From: a virus | Reading direction: 5' to 3' (one strand) | DNA length: 40,569 nt | Virus record (IMG/VR): IMGVR_UViG_3300045988_053499 | Coordinates: 1-40,569 of that record | Shown: in pieces, positions 4,563 through 38,019 of the stretch | How the letters are laid out: the number at the start of each line of letters is the position of its first letter | How positions within the stretch are numbered: the first letter of the stretch is position 1 | Program-made: the position numbers and the translations under genes | The notes under the pieces: generated by a model | What the model was told of the DNA's origin: nothing | Database searches by the model: none | The model's input: the letters and a program-made list of their open reading frames with translations, nothing else

Positions 4563-4630
4563 AAAATCCCCCACTTTGCCTACAAAGTACCCCGCGTGGA
4601 ACGCAGGGCTTTGGCAAAGCAGGGGATTTT
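4563..4630. terminator. Long imperfect hairpin with an A-run and a T-run (bidirectional terminator-like)
   Basis: AAAATCCCC..CTTTGCC pairs with GGCAAAG..GGGGATTTT. Inner stem CCCCGCG/CGCAGGG. Confidence 0.45.
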
Positions 4631-18179: not shown

Positions 18180-18256
18180 TGGTGCCGCCAGTAGGATTTG
18201 AACCTACGACCTTCCGATTACAAGACGGCGGCTCTGCCAGATTGAGCTATAGCGGC
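18180..18256 (-). tRNA. trnT: tRNA-Thr (anticodon UGU), CCA encoded
   Basis: Manual cloverleaf: acceptor GCCGCTA/TGGCGGC, D arm GCTC/GAGC, anticodon loop CTTGTAA, T arm GTAGG-TTCAAAT-CCTAC. The anticodon stem has only 3 Watson-Crick pairs. Confidence 0.8.
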
Positions 18257-25497: not shown

Positions 25498-25573
25498 TGG
25501 CATTCCCGGCAGGGCTCAAACCTGCAGCCTGCGGTTTTGGAGACCGCTGTTCCATCGCTTGAACTACGGGAAT
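25498..25573 (-). tRNA. trnW: tRNA-Trp (anticodon CCA), CCA encoded
   Basis: Manual cloverleaf: ATTCCCG/CGGGAAT, GTTC/GAAC, GCGGT-CTCCAAA-ACCGC, GCAGG-TTTGAGC-CCTGC. The D-loop lacks GG and the T-loop has U at position 56. Confidence 0.8.
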
Positions 25574-25798: not shown

Positions 25799-25875
25799 TG
25801 GTGTTCCGGGATGGATTTGAACCAACTACTTGCTGCTTCAATAGGCTGCTGCTCTACCAGTTGAGCTACCGGAAC
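25799..25875 (-). tRNA. tRNA-like gene, anticodon arm not foldable (identity undetermined or pseudo-tRNA)
   Basis: Acceptor GTTCCGG/CCGGAAC. D arm GCTC-AACTGGTA-GAGC. T arm GTTGG-TTCAAAT-CCATC. ACCA end. Both halves of the expected anticodon stem read GCAGC. Confidence 0.5.
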
Positions 25876-26944: not shown

Positions 26945-27316
26945 TTATTTCTCCATTTCCTCAATCCAGATCTCCACTCTGGGGTTTTGCTTGTCATAGT
27001 CCACCCGGCTTCCGTCGTGGGCGGCAACGATGCGGCTGTTGTCGTCCTCCAACACCCGAACTTTCACCAGTATGTCGCAGGTCGCTTCTATCAGGTTGGC
27101 AAGGTCTACCTTGCGCCGGGTAGCCATGTAGTACACGCACCGCACGTTCACGCGGGCAGAGATGGGCTCAGGCGGGGCGCGTATCTGCCACAGGCAAGAG
27201 GTCTGGTATTCCTCAAACGCCGCGCTTGGGGCTACAAAGTGCCGTCCTCCGCGCCCTTGCAGGATGCGCGCACTGTTTTTCTTTGTGCGTGGGTCGCCGT
27301 AGAGGATAATTTTCAT
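26945..27316 (-). CDS. rusA: RusA-family Holliday junction resolvase
   Basis: MKIILYGDPRTKKN..VDLANLIEATCDILVKVRVLEDDNSRIV matches the RusA pattern. ATGA coupling at the start. Confidence 0.75.
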   Translation of the reverse strand: MKIILYGDPRTKKNSARILQGRGGRHFVAPSAAFEEYQTSCLWQIRAPPEPISARVNVRCVYYMATRRKVDLANLIEATCDILVKVRVLEDDNSRIVAAHDGSRVDYDKQNPRVEIWIEEMEK

Positions 27317-27507
27317 TCGTAATCCTCCATGTAGCACCAGCTCTGGGCGTCCTGGGCTGCTGCCGTCTGGGTGTTTTCCACAACACAAACAAGCTGCTCC
27401 AACTCGTTTTCCATGTCCGGGTTATACCATCCGCCCAAGATTTCCGGGGCAAGGTCGCGGATTCTCTGAATAACGTCCTCCGCATAGATCATACGTTTAT
27501 CGCTCAT
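27313..27507 (-). CDS. Hypothetical protein
   Basis: 64 aa from the ATG at 27507, which overlaps the upstream stop (ATGA). Confidence 0.55.
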   Translation of the reverse strand: MSDKRMIYAEDVIQRIRDLAPEILGGWYNPDMENELEQLVCVVENTQTAAAQDAQSWCYMEDYE

Positions 27508-28200: not shown

Positions 28201-28851
28201 TTACCCCCATTGTTCGGACATTGCCTTTGCCACGCCCGGAAACGTCTTTGCGCGGTTCCTTGCACGGTCAGTGGTAAATATTCCCTTGTGCTGCTCGCCA
28301 TGCTTGTGCGAGTAGGAACCAGACGGGCACCATGTCGCGGTAGGTTCTACGATGTTTGTCGGGTGCAGCGGCGGTACACCGCGCTCCCACAATAGCGTTT
28401 TCTTACTGTACGGATGTCCGTACTCGTAGGGCTGGATTGCCTGCGTAGGCTTTGGGTAATCAAAAATCTTGCTGGGGGTTGGATTCTCAATCACCACTTT
28501 TTCGCAATCTGCCGCCCACACGGCAAGAAAAAGCGCCTTGCCGCACAATCCCTCATAATACCGGGAAAGATTGAGCTTTCCTCCCTTGTACAGGTGTCTT
28601 GCTCCCGCGTTGCTCGTCTTTGTGCATGGGACAAATGCGATAATCATATCCCAGCGGGGCACATCATGCGCGATTCCGTCCATGGTCACGACCTGCCCCC
28701 CCTCAATAGCCTTTAGGCAGTCACCGAGAATATGCCACTCAGGATGCCCGCCGGACGGCTCAATCAGGTCGCAAGAGTAGGCTTCGTGACCTTTTGCGCG
28801 AAACGCTTTGCACACTTCTTGCGATTCCTCACAGGCAACTAAAACTTTCAT
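28201..28851 (-). CDS. Phage C5-cytosine-methyltransferase-like protein (PCT and ENP motifs, no FxGxG)
   Basis: MKVLVACEESQ..GHEAYSCD..FVPCTKTS..IENPTPS..TFPGVAKAMSEQWG matches a prophage family often annotated as DNA cytosine methyltransferase. Confidence 0.6.
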   Translation of the reverse strand: MKVLVACEESQEVCKAFRAKGHEAYSCDLIEPSGGHPEWHILGDCLKAIEGGQVVTMDGIAHDVPRWDMIIAFVPCTKTSNAGARHLYKGGKLNLSRYYEGLCGKALFLAVWAADCEKVVIENPTPSKIFDYPKPTQAIQPYEYGHPYSKKTLLWERGVPPLHPTNIVEPTATWCPSGSYSHKHGEQHKGIFTTDRARNRAKTFPGVAKAMSEQWG

Positions 28852-29063
28852 TTGTCTCCTCCGTTTTCGCCCAAATACTTTTTCTTGCCCTTCTCCCTGT
28901 GCTTGTCCTCGTAGTTGTAGCGGTAGACCCTGCCGGATACGGTCATCTGCCGGTTATAGTCCGTCTCTTTGGCGTGTTCTTTGCGCCAAGCGGCAAACTG
29001 CGGACAGTGGTCGTGACAGGCAGGGTACCGGGCAGGGCAGTCTTTGCAGCATGGATTTGTCAA
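28848..29063 (-). CDS. Small Cys-rich protein
   Basis: 71-aa ORF. CCKDCPARYPACHDHC. Overlaps neighbours at both ends by 4 nt. Confidence 0.55.
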   Translation of the reverse strand: MTNPCCKDCPARYPACHDHCPQFAAWRKEHAKETDYNRQMTVSGRVYRYNYEDKHREKGKKKYLGENGGDK

Positions 29064-29908
29064 GTGTTATCTGCCCCTTTCTTGTTTTTCCGCAGTCGTT
29101 CCCGGCTGTGCGCCATGCGCTCCGGGCTTAAAATATCATTTCCGGACGGCTCTGCTCTGTCCACGCGTGTGCATTTTGCCCGGCTGCCGCCGATAGGGCA
29201 GAGCTGGTTATACTCCGCAACGGTCTTGCAGCCAAGTCCTTCAGCTTCTTCCAGCGCCTTGCGGACATACGCCCAGCTGCCGCCGCCCAGATCCACACAC
29301 TTGTCCATGACCGCGTACACAAGATCCGCGCCCATGCGCTCTATGTAGCCGGTCAGCTCTTTTTCTCCAGTCTTGCTCAGATTGCTGACATTCTCCCGAA
29401 AAAAATCCACTAGAGATTTCGTCGTCCTCGTCCCTGTATAGGAGGAGTCATCTTTAGATGACGACGACTTATCTATATCTAATATCTTATCTCTAATATC
29501 TGTATGGACATTTTTGTGGACGTCTGTGTGGACATCCTGTGGACATTGTCCACAGTGTTCTGCATTAATTTGACGCTGGTTCGTTCTTTGCAACTTTTTT
29601 TGTGCTGCATAATCGGTTTCGCTTCCGACCATTTCCGAGTGGTTTGCAAGCACCAACGTTCCGTCTTTTTCCTGATAAATCAGCCCAAGTTTCGCGTAAA
29701 GTCCCAGCGCGACACGCACCGTATCGGTAGAAAACCACTTAGTATCGCGCTGAATCTTGTCCACGTCATACGGAATGATCACTTCACCGATCTGCCGCGA
29801 AAGCCTGCCGTTTGTGTTGATAGTCATAAGGCAGAGCATCTGGTACAGAACCACATAGTTTGCGCCGTTTTTCTGACCCATGAGAAAATCCACCGCGTCG
29901 GACCGCAT
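29060..29908 (-). CDS. Replisome organizer N-domain plus DnaD-like C-domain (conserved N-terminus extends to 29956 without a canonical start)
   Basis: In frame upstream of the ATG at 29908 the sequence reads T-A-T-G-K-R-Y-Y-W-L-K-L-K-D-S-F. ACG at 29956 sits 6 nt after GGAGGTGA. C-terminal DnaD-like segment L.GYIERMGADLVYAVMDKC..SWAYVRKAL. Confidence 0.75.
   Translation of the reverse strand: MRSDAVDFLMGQKNGANYVVLYQMLCLMTINTNGRLSRQIGEVIIPYDVDKIQRDTKWFSTDTVRVALGLYAKLGLIYQEKDGTLVLANHSEMVGSETDYAAQKKLQRTNQRQINAEHCGQCPQDVHTDVHKNVHTDIRDKILDIDKSSSSKDDSSYTGTRTTKSLVDFFRENVSNLSKTGEKELTGYIERMGADLVYAVMDKCVDLGGGSWAYVRKALEEAEGLGCKTVAEYNQLCPIGGSRAKCTRVDRAEPSGNDILSPERMAHSRERLRKNKKGADNT
29468..29553. promoter_or_regulatory. 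Candidate replication origin: AT-rich tract plus phased (G/A)TGGAC(A) iterons
   Basis: Copies at 29504, 29516, 29528 and 29539 (11-12 bp phasing). Inverted TGTCCAC at 29547. Adjacent TATCT-rich tract. Lies inside the organizer gene. Confidence 0.5.
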
Positions 29909-30014
29909 GAAGCTGTCTTTGAGCTTTAGCCAGTAGTATCTTTTCCCTGTAGCCGTATGATTTCACCTCCTTCCGCACACCCGTATAGCCAGATAGCACA
30001 GCTCTTGAGATGTG

Positions 30015-31070
30015 TCAGTCTTTGCTTACGTCAACCCCGGTGATTTCCTTGAAAATCGCCGCGTCGAAGTTCGGCAAACTGAGGATAACGTTTCGATCAT
30101 CGGCACTAAGCCCCGCCCACCACTTCCGGGCGTTGTCCGCTGTGGTGCGCTCCTTCAAATAACCGCCAGTCGTTTCAGCTTCAGGGTGCGCTGCCTTTTC
30201 TTCATCGGTCATATCAGGCAGATAAACGTATTCAAGCTGGCAATCGTCAATATCGTTCAGCAAACGCCGGGCACGGCAGTTAAACCACCGCCCAAACGTC
30301 CAGTCGGTAGGCTTGTTGAACATATAGATTTTGGGCGATACCGTATTGAAACAGCCATTGGAAAAGGATGTAGCGTTCCAGTCGCCGCTGTTCCTGTTGC
30401 CGCTGTTCCAGTCGCCGCTGTTCCTGTTGCCGCTGTTCCTGTTGCCGCTGTTCCTGTTGCCGCTGTTCCTGTTGCCGCTGTTCCTGTTGCCGCTGTTGCA
30501 GTCGCCGCTGTTGCAGTTGCCGCTGTTGCAGTCGCCGCTGTTGCAGTCGCCGCTGTTCCTGTTGCCGCTGTTGCAGTCGCCGCTGTTCCTGTTGCCGCTG
30601 TTGCAGTTGCCGCTGTTGCAGTTGCCGCTGTTCCTGTTGCCGCTGTTGCAGTCGCCGCTGTTCCTGTTGCCGCTGTTGCAGTTGCCGCTGTTCCTGTTGC
30701 CGCTGTTGCAGTTGCCGCTGTTGCAGTTGCCGCTGTTCCTGTTGCCGCTGTTGCAACGTCCAGTACAAGCCTTTCCCGTGTTCACGATGTCAAGGACTTC
30801 AGCCCAAGGGATTTCCCGCACAATTTCCAGCTTGTTCGTTGCACACTTATCCTCACCTTCTGCAACCGTACCGTGGGCGATCACTTCAGCGACGTGGTTG
30901 TTCGGGTCAAAATCATAGTAACGGAAACAGTCGGCAGCATTCTTGCAGAAGTGCATACCCACATTGCAGACAGACGGACTTACAAATTCTTCAAAGATTC
31001 CCGGGCAAGAATACTGTTTTCCGCGACACGTCCAATCAGAATTAAAAACTTTATATCCTTTTACGCTCAT
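30015..31070 (-). CDS. Protein with a DUF7666-like N-domain and 25 tandem NSG(N/D)(R/C/W) five-residue repeats
   Basis: 351-aa ORF with AAGGAGGAG RBS. N-terminus KGYKVFNSDWTCRGKQY..GMHFC. Central repeat array encoded by 15-bp units. Confidence 0.8.
   Translation of the reverse strand: MSVKGYKVFNSDWTCRGKQYSCPGIFEEFVSPSVCNVGMHFCKNAADCFRYYDFDPNNHVAEVIAHGTVAEGEDKCATNKLEIVREIPWAEVLDIVNTGKACTGRCNSGNRNSGNCNSGNCNSGNRNSGNCNSGNRNSGDCNSGNRNSGNCNSGNCNSGNRNSGDCNSGNRNSGDCNSGDCNSGNCNSGDCNSGNRNSGNRNSGNRNSGNRNSGNRNSGDWNSGNRNSGDWNATSFSNGCFNTVSPKIYMFNKPTDWTFGRWFNCRARRLLNDIDDCQLEYVYLPDMTDEEKAAHPEAETTGGYLKERTTADNARKWWAGLSADDRNVILSLPNFDAAIFKEITGVDVSKD
30378..30752. repeat. 25 x 15-bp perfect-register tandem repeat (coding)
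   Basis: Units (CCA/CCT/GCA)GT(C/T)GCCGCTGTT. Only four unit variants occur. Confidence 0.95.
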
Positions 31071-31087
31071 TGTTTATCTCCTCCTTT

Positions 31088-31561
31088 TCAGAACGGCAGG
31101 TCGTCGGTGTCGTTTATCACGGAAAAATCGTCCATGCTGCCCTGCGTGTAGGCGGGCTGCGGGGCGTTCTGCGCGGCTTTTGCCTGCTGCACATGATTCC
31201 TCGTCTGCTGCTCGTAGGACGCGGCAGTGGGCTTATCTGCCGTCTTTGCGCCTGCAAAGCTGATATTGTCTGCCACAACTTCCACAGCGGTGCGGTTGTT
31301 TCCGTTCTTGTCCTGATAATTCCGGGTCTGCAGGCTGCCGTCAATGGCGATCATGCTGCCCTTCTGGAAGAACTTGCAGATAAATTCGGCGGTCTTGCCC
31401 CATGCCACGATATCCACAAAATCAGCCTGACGCTGCTGGCCCTTCGGGGTATAGCTGCGCTCGCAGGCAATGCGGAAGGTGCACACGTTGGTTCCCTGCT
31501 GGGTGGTGCGGAGTTCCGGGTCTGCCACAAGGCGACCCATGATTGCTACTACGTTAAGCAT
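31088..31561 (-). CDS. ssb: Single-stranded DNA-binding protein
   Basis: MLNVVAIMGRLVADPELR OB-fold N-terminus and a C-terminal DDLPF tail. Confidence 0.92.
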   Translation of the reverse strand: MLNVVAIMGRLVADPELRTTQQGTNVCTFRIACERSYTPKGQQRQADFVDIVAWGKTAEFICKFFQKGSMIAIDGSLQTRNYQDKNGNNRTAVEVVADNISFAGAKTADKPTAASYEQQTRNHVQQAKAAQNAPQPAYTQGSMDDFSVINDTDDLPF

Positions 31562-32234
31562 GTTCTAATCCTTTCTCTTCTTTTGGTTGCTTCTGGGCAC
31601 AATCCCAACACAACAAACGTCCATACTTTTCTTTTGTGGTTTTTGCAATATGCGTGTTGGAGACGCGCTTGCCTTTATACATGGCATCTTGTATCGGCTT
31701 GCCACAACAAGCACACATTAAGATCATCGGCGTGTTGTCCAGCGCTGCCTGTACTTCTGGGTCACGCTTTGGTGCTGCAGGTACGCTCTCTGACCGCGCA
31801 CTGTACTTTGTCGGGTCTGCCCCCCAGTAAACATCTGCGCCCACGCCAAGTGCCTTGCACGCCACGCTCTGGGCGTCTGTGTAGGCTTTTTTGTAGGCGT
31901 CATCGTCTGTGCGCAAACCGCCCTGCTCCCTTGCGATCAGCAGCGATCCACCAACGCCGGGAATCGGTGCGCTCCATGGCTTTTCCTCGCCCTGCCGGAT
32001 GTAAAGGCTGGTGAAGCAATGCACTACGACCTCACCGTTTGCGCCCTGCTTTTCATCAAATACGGGCGGGTCAAACTTCCATCCCACCCCGGCAGCACCG
32101 AACAGCTCTGTCAGCTTCTTGATACGCCACATAGGGTTGATATCGCTTTTGCCCTTCAGGCGGCCGGCAGCGATTTTTCGTAGGGCTTCCGGTGGGGCTT
32201 TTCTTGCGCTGTTGTAGATTTCCATTTTATCCAT
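31554..32234 (-). CDS. Rad52-like single-strand annealing protein with a C-terminal zinc ribbon
   Basis: DINPMWRIKKLTELFGAAGVGWKF motif. Directly upstream of ssb. CACCG..CWDC. ATG at 32234 lies 9 nt after GGAGGTGG. Confidence 0.6.
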   Translation of the reverse strand: MDKMEIYNSARKAPPEALRKIAAGRLKGKSDINPMWRIKKLTELFGAAGVGWKFDPPVFDEKQGANGEVVVHCFTSLYIRQGEEKPWSAPIPGVGGSLLIAREQGGLRTDDDAYKKAYTDAQSVACKALGVGADVYWGADPTKYSARSESVPAAPKRDPEVQAALDNTPMILMCACCGKPIQDAMYKGKRVSNTHIAKTTKEKYGRLLCWDCAQKQPKEEKGLEHA

Positions 32235-32640
32235 GTTTGTATGCCACCTCCGGGCATCCGTGCGCGCGGCACCGGCTTTGCAGCGATAGGTGCTGTACGT
32301 TGTATGCGGCATCTGCCCCAATAGCAAGGTCTTTTGCAGTAGTGAACAGGCTGGACTGCGTAAGGATCACTTCCAGCGCATACATTGCCTTGCCGAGTGC
32401 CTCTGCGGCATTCTTGCAGGCAAGCGCACGGTCGGTAGGGATCGTTCCCATATAGACGCAATCCGGGTTGTTTTTCGTCCACGCAAGGTCACCGGCAACC
32501 GCTTTTTGCACTTTGCCAAGTGTGGAAACCGCCTCGCCAATGTCTGCGAGTGCTCCCAGCGTGAGACCTAGCTGCCACTCCGGCACGTTGCTTGCATAGT
32601 TCAAGCAGATCTGTTTTTTTTCATCACAATGCATAAACAT
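32227..32640 (-). CDS. Hypothetical protein
   Basis: 137-aa ORF packed between neighbouring genes. Confidence 0.6.
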   Translation of the reverse strand: MFMHCDEKKQICLNYASNVPEWQLGLTLGALADIGEAVSTLGKVQKAVAGDLAWTKNNPDCVYMGTIPTDRALACKNAAEALGKAMYALEVILTQSSLFTTAKDLAIGADAAYNVQHLSLQSRCRAHGCPEVAYKHG

Positions 32641-37819: not shown

Positions 37820-37915
37820 ACTTGCTTACAACTGCATTTTACAACTGTTTGGCGTAATCGTCAATCAATTTTAATAGCGAAAAAAATCGCCAAAAATTTG
37901 AGATTTGCGCTGAAT

Positions 37916-37979
37916 CGCGCGATTTACGCGCACTTTTAAGCAAAAAACGCGCGATTTACGCGCACTTTTAAGCAAAAAA
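37916..37979. repeat. Two perfect 32-bp tandem repeats (plus a degenerate third copy to about 38010)
   Basis: CGCGCGATTTACGCGCACTTTTAAGCAAAAAA x2. Each copy holds a GCGCG-ATTTA-CGCGC hairpin. Confidence 0.85.
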
Positions 37980-38019
37980 CGCGCGGTTTACGCTGACTTC
38001 GCGCAAAATATGCGCGTTG

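Follow-up and report, generated by a model that had tools for sequence, protein, structure and literature searches.

Unit number and order vary in a coding pentapeptide minisatellite of an early prophage gene

Introduction

What does a temperate phage do with a tandem repeat that can gain or lose units inside an early gene without disturbing its reading frame, and is the resulting diversity kept by selection or simply tolerated? This question is raised by a gene at 30015..31070 (minus strand; 351 codons plus stop) of the IMG/VR virus record IMGVR_UViG_3300045988_053499, the 40,569 nucleotides of which are termed the window here. As read from the open reading frame list, the translation, and Pfam and PHROG searches, the encoded protein has three parts: a DUF7666 head, an array of pentapeptide units, and a conserved C-terminal domain (C-domain). 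A preliminary description of the window had noted that the period of the array matches pentapeptide-repeat beta-helices but that the central hydrophobic residue of their consensus is missing, and had proposed that the array could form a Cys/Arg ladder, that it could change in length by whole units, and that the gene has an early function such as interference with host factors or defences. The analysis below addresses, in turn, how the array is built, how it varies, which of its positions are constrained, what family it belongs to, and what structure and role may be proposed for it.

Results

Architecture of the repeat gene

The coding minisatellite lies at 30378..30752 on the minus strand and encodes residues 107-231. 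It is gap-free and contains exactly 25 units of 15 bp with the pattern N-S-G-(N/D)-(R/C/W), built from just four DNA variants: AACAGCGGCAACAGG (NSGNR, 12 copies), AACAGCGGCAACTGC (NSGNC, 6 copies), AACAGCGGCGACTGC (NSGDC, 5 copies), and AACAGCGGCGACTGG (NSGDW, 2 copies). Residue 5 of the window array is accordingly Trp in 2 units and Cys in 11. Tandem Repeats Finder places the repeat at 30375-30752 (period 15, 25.2 copies, 0% indels, score 546); with the translation, this confirms the position, the unit count and the four variants originally reported. The 12-nt core AACAGCGGCRAC has 25 exact occurrences in the window, every one of which is within the array. Allowing a single mismatch raises the count to 27, as compared to 0.74 expected by chance.

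A head and a tail flank the array. The N-terminal head (30753..31070, minus strand; residues 1-106) matches DUF7666 (PF24703; 94.3 bits, cut-off 27, E=6.6e-27), with residues 3-93 aligned to profile positions 1-93 of 95, in agreement with the DUF7666-like domain first suggested for this region. Beyond this domain, the degenerate pentads NTGKA and CTGRC lead into the array. The C-terminal tail (30018..30377, minus strand; residues 232-351) starts with further degenerate pentads, NATSF, SNGCF, NTVSP, and KIYMF, described as aromatic-fifth in alignment A3. In the same alignment, the C-domain proper begins at FNK (~residue 251) and terminates at LPNFD..IFKEITG. A C-domain of about 110 residues had been anticipated; the domain exists, and the tail that contains it measures 120.

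All reading frames of the repeat are free of stop codons, which also gives rise to long overlapping open reading frames: one of 379 aa on the plus strand (30012..31151) and one of 162 aa in another frame of the minus strand (30280-30768). The 379-aa frame was dismissed as a by-product of the stop-free repeat. Gene callers could mis-annotate either.

Variation in the number and order of units

Two syntenic prophages can be compared directly with the window across the 681 nt of unique coding sequence that flank the array (318 + 363 nt). One of these (L003) has 0 differences from the window in this sequence, yet carries 15 units where the window carries 25. The other (L002) has 3 differences, yet carries 33 units. 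In both, the order of units also differs from that in the window, and the surrounding DNA is ~98.5% identical. A unit of 15 bp is divisible by 3, and genomes that are near-identical in other respects differ in copy number; these two properties identify the array as a coding variable-number tandem repeat.

Database relatives extend this pattern. The best 120 homologues are 281-398 aa in length and nearly all combine a fixed 106-aa head and 120-aa tail with arrays of 8-33 units; their lengths differ mostly in 5-aa steps, as expected if length changes by whole units and the frame is kept. Ten proteins with 100% identical head and tail contain 13-25 units, and no two of the ten have the same order. 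Alleles that are related begin with the same long series of units, after which they are set apart by inserted or deleted blocks of 5 or 7 units. In each of two 90%-identity clusters, every member that was read has its own array. Pooling of the full-length genes gives 225 unique arrays of 1-33 units. The array is thus an in-frame coding minisatellite that is remodelled, both in how many units it has and in how they are arranged, at a higher rate than point substitutions build up. Invariant copy number would have been a reason to doubt the variability first proposed; copy number varies across relatives.

Reliability of the assembled arrays

One explanation for these differences would be technical: a repeat that exceeds the read length can be collapsed or mis-threaded during assembly, which would alter both copy number and order. 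Several observations point in this direction. The data are mostly metagenome assemblies, contigs often break within the array, and many database relatives are partial proteins that terminate in it. In the Faecalibacterium metagenome-assembled genome (MAG) HGM13298, for example, contigs break inside the array (L010/L012), and the IMG/VR contigs 3300045988_031937 (L084/L103) and 3300045988_048250 (L094/L090) both start and end within it. Against this explanation, the exact 351-aa protein of the window was recovered from both JGI and ENA data. An identical 34-unit array with identical flanks is present in three different metagenomes, and an identical 32-unit array with identical flanks is present in two. 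Shared unit prefixes followed by block indels are what descent predicts, and with four variants in quasi-random order, most stretches of ~140 nt should be unique. As identical long arrays recur in independent metagenomes, assembly error does not account for the diversity, and we consider an artefact, a concern already raised in the preliminary description, to be extremely improbable. The recurrence of identical arrays across samples further suggests that arrays are stable within a strain and different between strains, and shows that they do not change at every transmission.

Two observations on the assemblies are of separate interest. Breakpoints in the array might give viral contigs of ~40 kb apparent terminal repeats. 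In addition, the alleles P0139, P0137, and P0145 are frameshifted or truncated: after three units the frame moves to an alternative frame of the C-domain, with P0139 ending in ...FQWLFQYGIAQNLYVQQAH. These may be genuine pseudogenes; alternatively, errors of sequencing or assembly may have recurred at the repeat.

Constraint within the unit

The variation is concentrated at few positions. Among the 73 units of the three closest loci, only nucleotides 10 (A/G), 13 (A/T), and 15 (C/G) vary, together with a singleton at 11, and all of the changes are non-synonymous. A set of 22 IMG/VR loci from the close clade contributes 296 units; across codons 1-4 of these units, third positions were seen to vary in 2 of 1184 observations. 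Minor-allele frequencies are 45% at nucleotide 10, 36% at nucleotide 13, and 22% at nucleotide 15.

Residue statistics were taken from 3406 units in 249 arrays. Residue 1 is Asn and residue 3 is Gly in 100% of units. Residue 2 is Ser (88%) or Thr (8%), and residue 4 is Asn (50%) or Asp (42%). Residue 5 is the most varied: Trp 37%, Arg 29%, Cys 20%, Tyr 4%, Gln 2.5%, Ser 2.3%, Phe 1.1%, and Leu 0.5%. The Cys/Arg ladder can therefore be seen in the window allele and does not hold for the family, where Trp is the commonest residue and 36 of 194 arrays are devoid of Cys; only 6 arrays lack Arg and only 4 lack Trp. Net charge averages -0.11 per unit across arrays and is +5 in the window array.

Distant lineages encode the same N-[S/T]-G pattern with other codons, for example AAT-ACT-GGA in low-GC phages versus AAC-AGC-GGC. 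Conservation of the pattern despite these codon differences indicates that the constraint acts on the protein and not on the DNA. This bears on the proposal that the repeat acts as DNA, for example as a set of origin iterons or as an array bound by the replisome organiser. Its location in the replication module and its 25 identical unit cores would suit such a role. Iterons would be expected to keep their nucleotides; here, the amino-acid pattern is kept as codons change between lineages, the array is always in frame within a conserved open reading frame, and a better origin candidate is found inside the organiser gene (repeats at 29470-29546, with a GC dip to 0.42). A role at the level of DNA is thus scarcely plausible.

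At residue 5, adjoining units match slightly less often than they do in shuffled arrays (0.291 versus 0.319 +/- 0.008), and identity at this residue rises slightly at lags 5-8, which fits block duplication. There is no signal of a two-unit super-period, such as odd and even units would produce on the two faces of a 10-residue coil, in residue-5 identity at lag 2 (0.330 versus 0.323 +/- 0.007 when shuffled).

A diversity-generating retroelement acting on the array was considered and rejected. Neither a further copy of the unit nor a long imperfect direct repeat was found in the window, in a search that did not extend to a reverse transcriptase gene. The invariance of Asn codon 1 (AAC) argues against adenine-directed mutagenesis.

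Family assignment

Only two Pfam families match the protein, DUF7666 and Pentapeptide_2 (PF01469, XNXGX), and neither a PE nor a PPE domain is found. The array exceeds the Pentapeptide_2 threshold (85.9 bits, with a cut-off of 26.4) in a match made up of 6 stretches. Taken as a whole, the protein is assigned to PHROG 14105 (E=1.9e-134, 448.5 bits), for which the category is 'unknown function'. These assignments place the repeat within known families. None of the matches is to a characterised family with a known function, as would have been needed to set aside the novelty of the protein. A search with the full-length query returns >8000 matching database proteins.

Other searches were negative. 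The C-terminal domain matches no Pfam family. No match was found in NCBIfam or in PADLOC (none at E<=1 in the latter), and neither library includes anti-defence families. Nucleotide searches of GenBank phages gave only short matches to the window; one of these, to a Vibrio phage gene, was discarded as a low-identity chance match. The literature search found no paper that mentions DUF7666, and searches that paired pentapeptide repeats with prophages, anti-defence, or early genes yielded nothing on the DUF7666/pentapeptide/C-domain family. Within the searchable literature, no description of the protein family or of its hypervariability was found.

The name that NCBI gives to relatives, 'pentapeptide repeat-containing protein', invites comparison with the canonical A(D/N)LXX repeats of Qnr, MfpA, AlbG, and Rfr. 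If the array were of this type, it would form a right-handed quadrilateral beta-helix of four pentads per coil and could serve as a DNA mimic, like Qnr, MfpA, and AlbG, that targets gyrase or restriction enzymes. The five-residue period is shared. A sequence search of the PDB gave only marginal matches, to designed canonical pentapeptide proteins (5dra, E=0.0015), in a register that places G, N/D, and residue 5 of the phage unit opposite A, D/N, and the central L of A(D/N)LXX; in both repeats, D/N thus precedes the 'central' residue. The remaining evidence is contrary. The canonical families PF00805, PF13599, and PF13576 give no Pfam match even at E<=1. The central L/F is replaced by W/R/C, with L and F together below 2%, and Arg at 29% of core positions is incompatible with the fold, so the mismatch to the canonical consensus that was noted at the outset is upheld. 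The array is also roughly neutral in charge, and +5 in the window allele, unlike the strongly acidic DNA mimics, and AlphaFold2 builds no helix from it. A canonical pentapeptide helix is consequently very unlikely.

Architecture of the family

Searches with the C-domain identify 1020 cluster representatives at 50% identity with E<=1e-3, and 401 with E<=1e-10. In the best 149 of the C-domain proteins, Pentapeptide_2 is present in 111 and DUF7666 in just 57. Together with the variety of heads, this identifies the repeat and the C-domain as the conserved core and the head as the part that can be swapped. Bro-N replaces DUF7666 in P0302, on two repeat units and the C-domain; P0438 has a DUF551 head; the other heads are unannotated, save one ScaI-like match; and in Roseobacter phage CRP-811, the head is absent. 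Two proteins (P0361 and P0363) contain two complete modules of pentapeptide array and C-domain in tandem, and P0363 has hydrophobic N-terminal segments that may span a membrane. Stand-alone C-domains begin at MFNK. In the shortest arrangement, a head, 1-3 units, and a tail make up 233-235 aa. The family is therefore a very large group of uncharacterised phage proteins, with a swappable head, an N-x-G-x-x array, and a C-domain of ~100 aa.

Conversely, DUF7666 also heads arrays with 9-residue units, SAATNTG[N/D/Y][W/R/Y/C] and AKIGSSG[D/N/Y][S/F/Y], which are followed by a different C-domain. These proteins (L016-L022) are found in MAGs of Ruminococcus, Oscillospiraceae, and other Clostridia. 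In the 9-residue units, Gly is followed by a variable pair that mirrors residues 4 and 5 of the pentapeptide.

Predicted structure

An initial AlphaFold2 prediction from an alignment of 120 close homologues (A1) was uninformative, with a mean predicted local distance difference test score (pLDDT) of 40.9. A second run used a diverse alignment of 141 sequences (A4). Here, the head (residues 1-100) is predicted at pLDDT 94-98 as a beta-rich domain with one helix, and the tail (residues 250-345) at pLDDT 80-95 as a mixed alpha/beta domain. In both runs, the array is left at pLDDT ~30, and the beta-helix suggested by its period does not appear. A Foldseek search of the PDB with the model gave a best E of ~1, such that neither end domain resembles a solved structure, and profile searches of the PDB with the head and with the C-domain returned nothing significant. 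Foldseek matches in BFVD were solely to uncharacterised DUF7666 proteins of phages and giant viruses. In a sample of 12 heads, C15, C35, H40, and C42 are invariant; a Cys-Cys-His-Cys metal site as a family feature was nevertheless rejected, as the residues are missing from divergent heads.

Two forms of the array can be envisaged. Pentapeptide_2 has been predicted to form a new type of beta-solenoid with a 10-residue coil (PMC9663297). Four prediction methods agree on a PF01469 solenoid, and the same study finds that AlphaFold2 tends to over-predict solenoids for perfect repeats (bioRxiv 10.1101/2024.10.30.621056). A folded repeat is favoured by the strict N-[S/T]-G periodicity, by membership in Pentapeptide_2, and by the degenerate pentads that run into both domains. 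A flexible tether is favoured by the low pLDDT despite the bias of AlphaFold2 toward solenoids, by the polar composition, and by the unconstrained copy number.

Predicted disorder is also compatible with a sticker-and-spacer low-complexity domain, in which Trp and Arg would be stickers and N-S-G-N/D would be spacers. Such a domain might self-associate or form condensates around replicating phage DNA, with copy number tuning the valence. The likeness is to the grammar of prion-like domains. Residue 5 is Trp or Arg in 66% of units, with both present in nearly all arrays, the net charge is near neutral (mean -0.11 per unit), and the gene is in the replication module. However, the window array has only 2 Trp among its units, with 11 Cys, the strict N-x-G periodicity is unusual for such domains, and alleles with 1-3 units exist. 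We judge it improbable.

Genomic context and host

The window corresponds to a prophage within a 116,791-bp metagenomic contig (JGI 3300029243), to which it is 100% identical where the two overlap. Faecalibacterium is the probable host. This assignment draws on a partial DNA match to Faecalibacterium phage FP_Epona (~480 nt, elsewhere in the window than the repeat gene) and on the closest relative in genome collections, which is an uncultured Faecalibacterium MAG. More broadly, the context is a prophage of Clostridia.

The single-stranded DNA-binding protein gene, ssb (31088..31561, minus strand; Pfam SSB PF00436, E=8.6e-32), is immediately upstream of the repeat gene in the same operon. Its stop codon (31088..31090) is directly followed by a Shine-Dalgarno sequence, AAGGAGGAG (31078..31086, minus strand), that is located 7 nt upstream of the ATG of the repeat gene and is graded as a strong ribosome-binding site. 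At 106 nt downstream is the gene for a replisome organiser or DnaD-like helicase loader (29060..29908, minus strand; Pfam Phage_rep_org_N and DnaB_2; PHROG 5968, 186). Pfam and PHROG results for these neighbours agree with the location between ssb and the organiser that was first described, and no promoter-like or terminator-like site is found on the minus strand between the three genes. The strong ribosome-binding site, the operon position, and the conservation of the end domains in >8000 database proteins show that the repeat gene is genuine and translated, and that it is one of the early genes of a temperate phage.

Early location is also seen in relatives. The order SSB - repeat gene - organiser is conserved throughout the close clade, and distant homologues are likewise in the early regions of temperate phages: one follows the repressor switch, beside a SNF2 helicase and a PD-(D/E)XK protein; another is near Gp157 and ERF; and the relative in a Roseobacter phage is encoded on the strand opposite to ssb and PD-(D/E)XK nuclease genes, ~2.6 kb away from them. 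In the window, the other genes around the repeat gene are those for an exonuclease-like protein (31554..32327, minus strand; PHROG 7838), a DNA methyltransferase in the early operon (28201..28851, minus strand; PHROG 757, E=5e-50), and RusA (26945..27388, minus strand). The methyltransferase may protect against host restriction.

Further features of the window were recorded. In the segment 29400-29700 of the organiser gene, short tandem repeats at 29470-29501 (period 14) and 29498-29546 (period 12, 4.2 copies) coincide with a GC dip to 0.42; a replication origin within this gene, as in SPP1-type phages, is plausible. In the lysogeny region, an intergenic segment at 37913-38008 has three 32-bp direct repeats (AATCGCGCGATTTACGCGCACTTTTAAGCAAA; the third copy is 69% identical), each of which holds a short GC-rich palindrome; these could be operators or another protein-binding array. 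A DUF3800-VIII RNA (RF03075) is present at 4565-4628 on the minus strand (Rfam score 80.3 bits; gathering score 40.2). Rfam also confirms that the prophage has three tRNA genes on the minus strand (18180-18256, 25498-25573, and 25799-25875): Thr(TGT), Trp(CCA), and a third to which ARAGORN gives the four-base anticodon 'attg'. TGG (Trp) is the commonest residue-5 codon in the family arrays, to which the phage tRNA-Trp might be connected.

Discussion

A proposed role for the array

The hypervariability of the array is a clear and widespread phenomenon. How it arises and whether it is of use to the phage can be addressed with a model. Changes in the array would arise via replication slippage or via unequal homologous recombination between the identical 12-nt cores, to which the recombination genes that adjoin the repeat gene may contribute. 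Selection would then maintain several unit types in each array and prevent takeover by a single type. The product would be a middle segment of adjustable length between the head and the tail. This segment may be a narrow beta-solenoid rod, which at ~4.8 A per two units would extend ~60 A for 25 units; alternatively, it may be a flexible tether. In either form, a Trp, Arg, or Cys at every fifth residue would create a multivalent, fast-evolving contact surface. The putative partner would be cytoplasmic, such as a component of the host, of a defence system, or of a rival phage, and would be met early in infection. That the array is a middle segment of variable length and variable surface kept diverse by selection is the reading we prefer, and we rate its chances of being correct as even.

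Several results detract from this reading. Residues 103-239 are predicted at pLDDT ~30 without secondary structure in the A4 model, and N, S, and G make up 74% of the window array, which is strongly polar. On the predicted models, a disordered tether appears to fit the array at least as well as a rod. Copy number has no parity or modulo-4 preference (p=0.23 each), and intact natural proteins with just 1-3 units exist, which together suggest that array length may be functionally irrelevant. Frameshifted alleles are common, as in the P0139 cluster with 89 members, and their frequency suggests that the gene is dispensable in some lineages. In the 296 close-clade units, codon 5 also has the synonymous pairs TGC/TGT and AGG/CGG; part of the diversity may therefore reflect old linked alleles or mutation instead of selection. 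The population data all come from assemblies, mostly named in the style of short-read assemblers, and as the array is a frequent contig breakpoint, the copy numbers of single alleles are somewhat uncertain. Finally, no hint of function came from NCBIfam, from PADLOC, or from the PDB, whether the last was searched by sequence, by profile, or with Foldseek.

Many of these points feed the main rival explanation, which is a neutral, unstable linker. Here, the array would be a tolerated expansion in a disordered tether, with length and order subject to drift and no selected role. The pLDDT of ~30 in two AlphaFold2 runs, the N/S/G-rich composition, the intact proteins with 1-3 units, the continuous range of 1-33 units with no parity or modulo-4 preference, and the frequent frameshifted alleles would all be expected of such a linker. 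It is less readily reconciled with the presence of N-[S/T]-G in every unit across lineages of differing codons, or with the retention of the repeat in 111 of 149 diverse C-domain proteins. In addition, arrays never homogenise to one unit type, identical neighbours are slightly depleted, and the degenerate pentads merge into both folded domains. We regard a neutral linker as possible, though doubtful on the present balance.

A stronger form of the selected-diversity reading can also be considered, in which recombination would make the array a generator of diversity. The N-S-G scaffold would stay fixed and carry a two-position combinatorial code, N/D by W/R/C/S/Q/Y, that exchange of units and blocks would reshuffle. 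The resulting strain-unique surface would be selected either by an arms race with a host defence sensor or as a determinant of specificity between related prophages in competition. This more specific proposal is unlikely.

Comparison with known systems

The closest parallels in sequence are the PPE-MPTR proteins of mycobacteria, where MPTR stands for 'major polymorphic tandem repeats'. Both have XNXGX repeats with invariant N and G, both undergo polymorphic expansion, which in PPE-MPTR involves cassette duplication (PMC4858275), and neither repeat has a solved structure. The differences are as follows: the phage protein has no PE/PPE domain; it is a cytoplasmic early product, whereas PPE-MPTR proteins are secreted or at the mycobacterial surface; its units follow N-S-G-(N/D)-X almost perfectly and lack the alternating NxGxG/NxG pattern; and AlphaFold2 gives no confident model of its array. 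As of 2016, 95% of Pfam Pentapeptide_2 sequences were mycobacterial and the structure was unsolved (PMC4858275), whereas the phage family has thousands of members.

Other systems are similar in a single respect. The early proteins with Bro-N and KilAC domains likewise combine a conserved C-terminal module with an N-terminal head that can be exchanged, and are also encoded in early regions; in contrast, the C-domain here matches no Pfam family, and the array has no counterpart in those proteins. The hyvI/hyvII genes of 'Ca. Liberibacter asiaticus' have far longer units (>100 bp) and belong to a different host phylum; they are not known to be related to the phage pentapeptide family, and their function is likewise unassigned. 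The likeness is that hyvI/hyvII are prophage genes in which the number and arrangement of repeats vary between isolates, according to one report (PMC3862640, citing Zhou et al. 2011). The targets of diversity-generating retroelements in gut and Faecalibacterium phages show localised hypervariability in the same ecosystem (PMC11792537). They differ in that the window contains no template repeat and the variation is in unit number and order.

Implications

Some consequences follow whichever reading is correct. The array is nearly a fingerprint for each strain and could be used for typing Faecalibacterium-type prophages. It is also a systematic assembly breakpoint, which is a practical concern. 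The natural variants with 1-3 units are convenient targets for solving the fold. Pentapeptide_2-type repeats, long held to be essentially mycobacterial, are extended by this work into a large viral family.

The broader meaning depends on whether the diversity is selected. If it is neutral, the array is merely an unusually clear minisatellite tolerated in a phage gene. If the diversity-generator proposal were true, it would represent a third route to targeted hypervariation of phage proteins, besides retroelements and the swapping of tail-fibre cassettes, and one that acts on an early cytoplasmic protein instead of a receptor-binding protein. The gene is in the early replication region, a frequent site of anti-defence and takeover genes. 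If its diversity is selected, the family would mark a fast-evolving point of contact, so far unrecognised, at which temperate gut phages meet their hosts or rivals.

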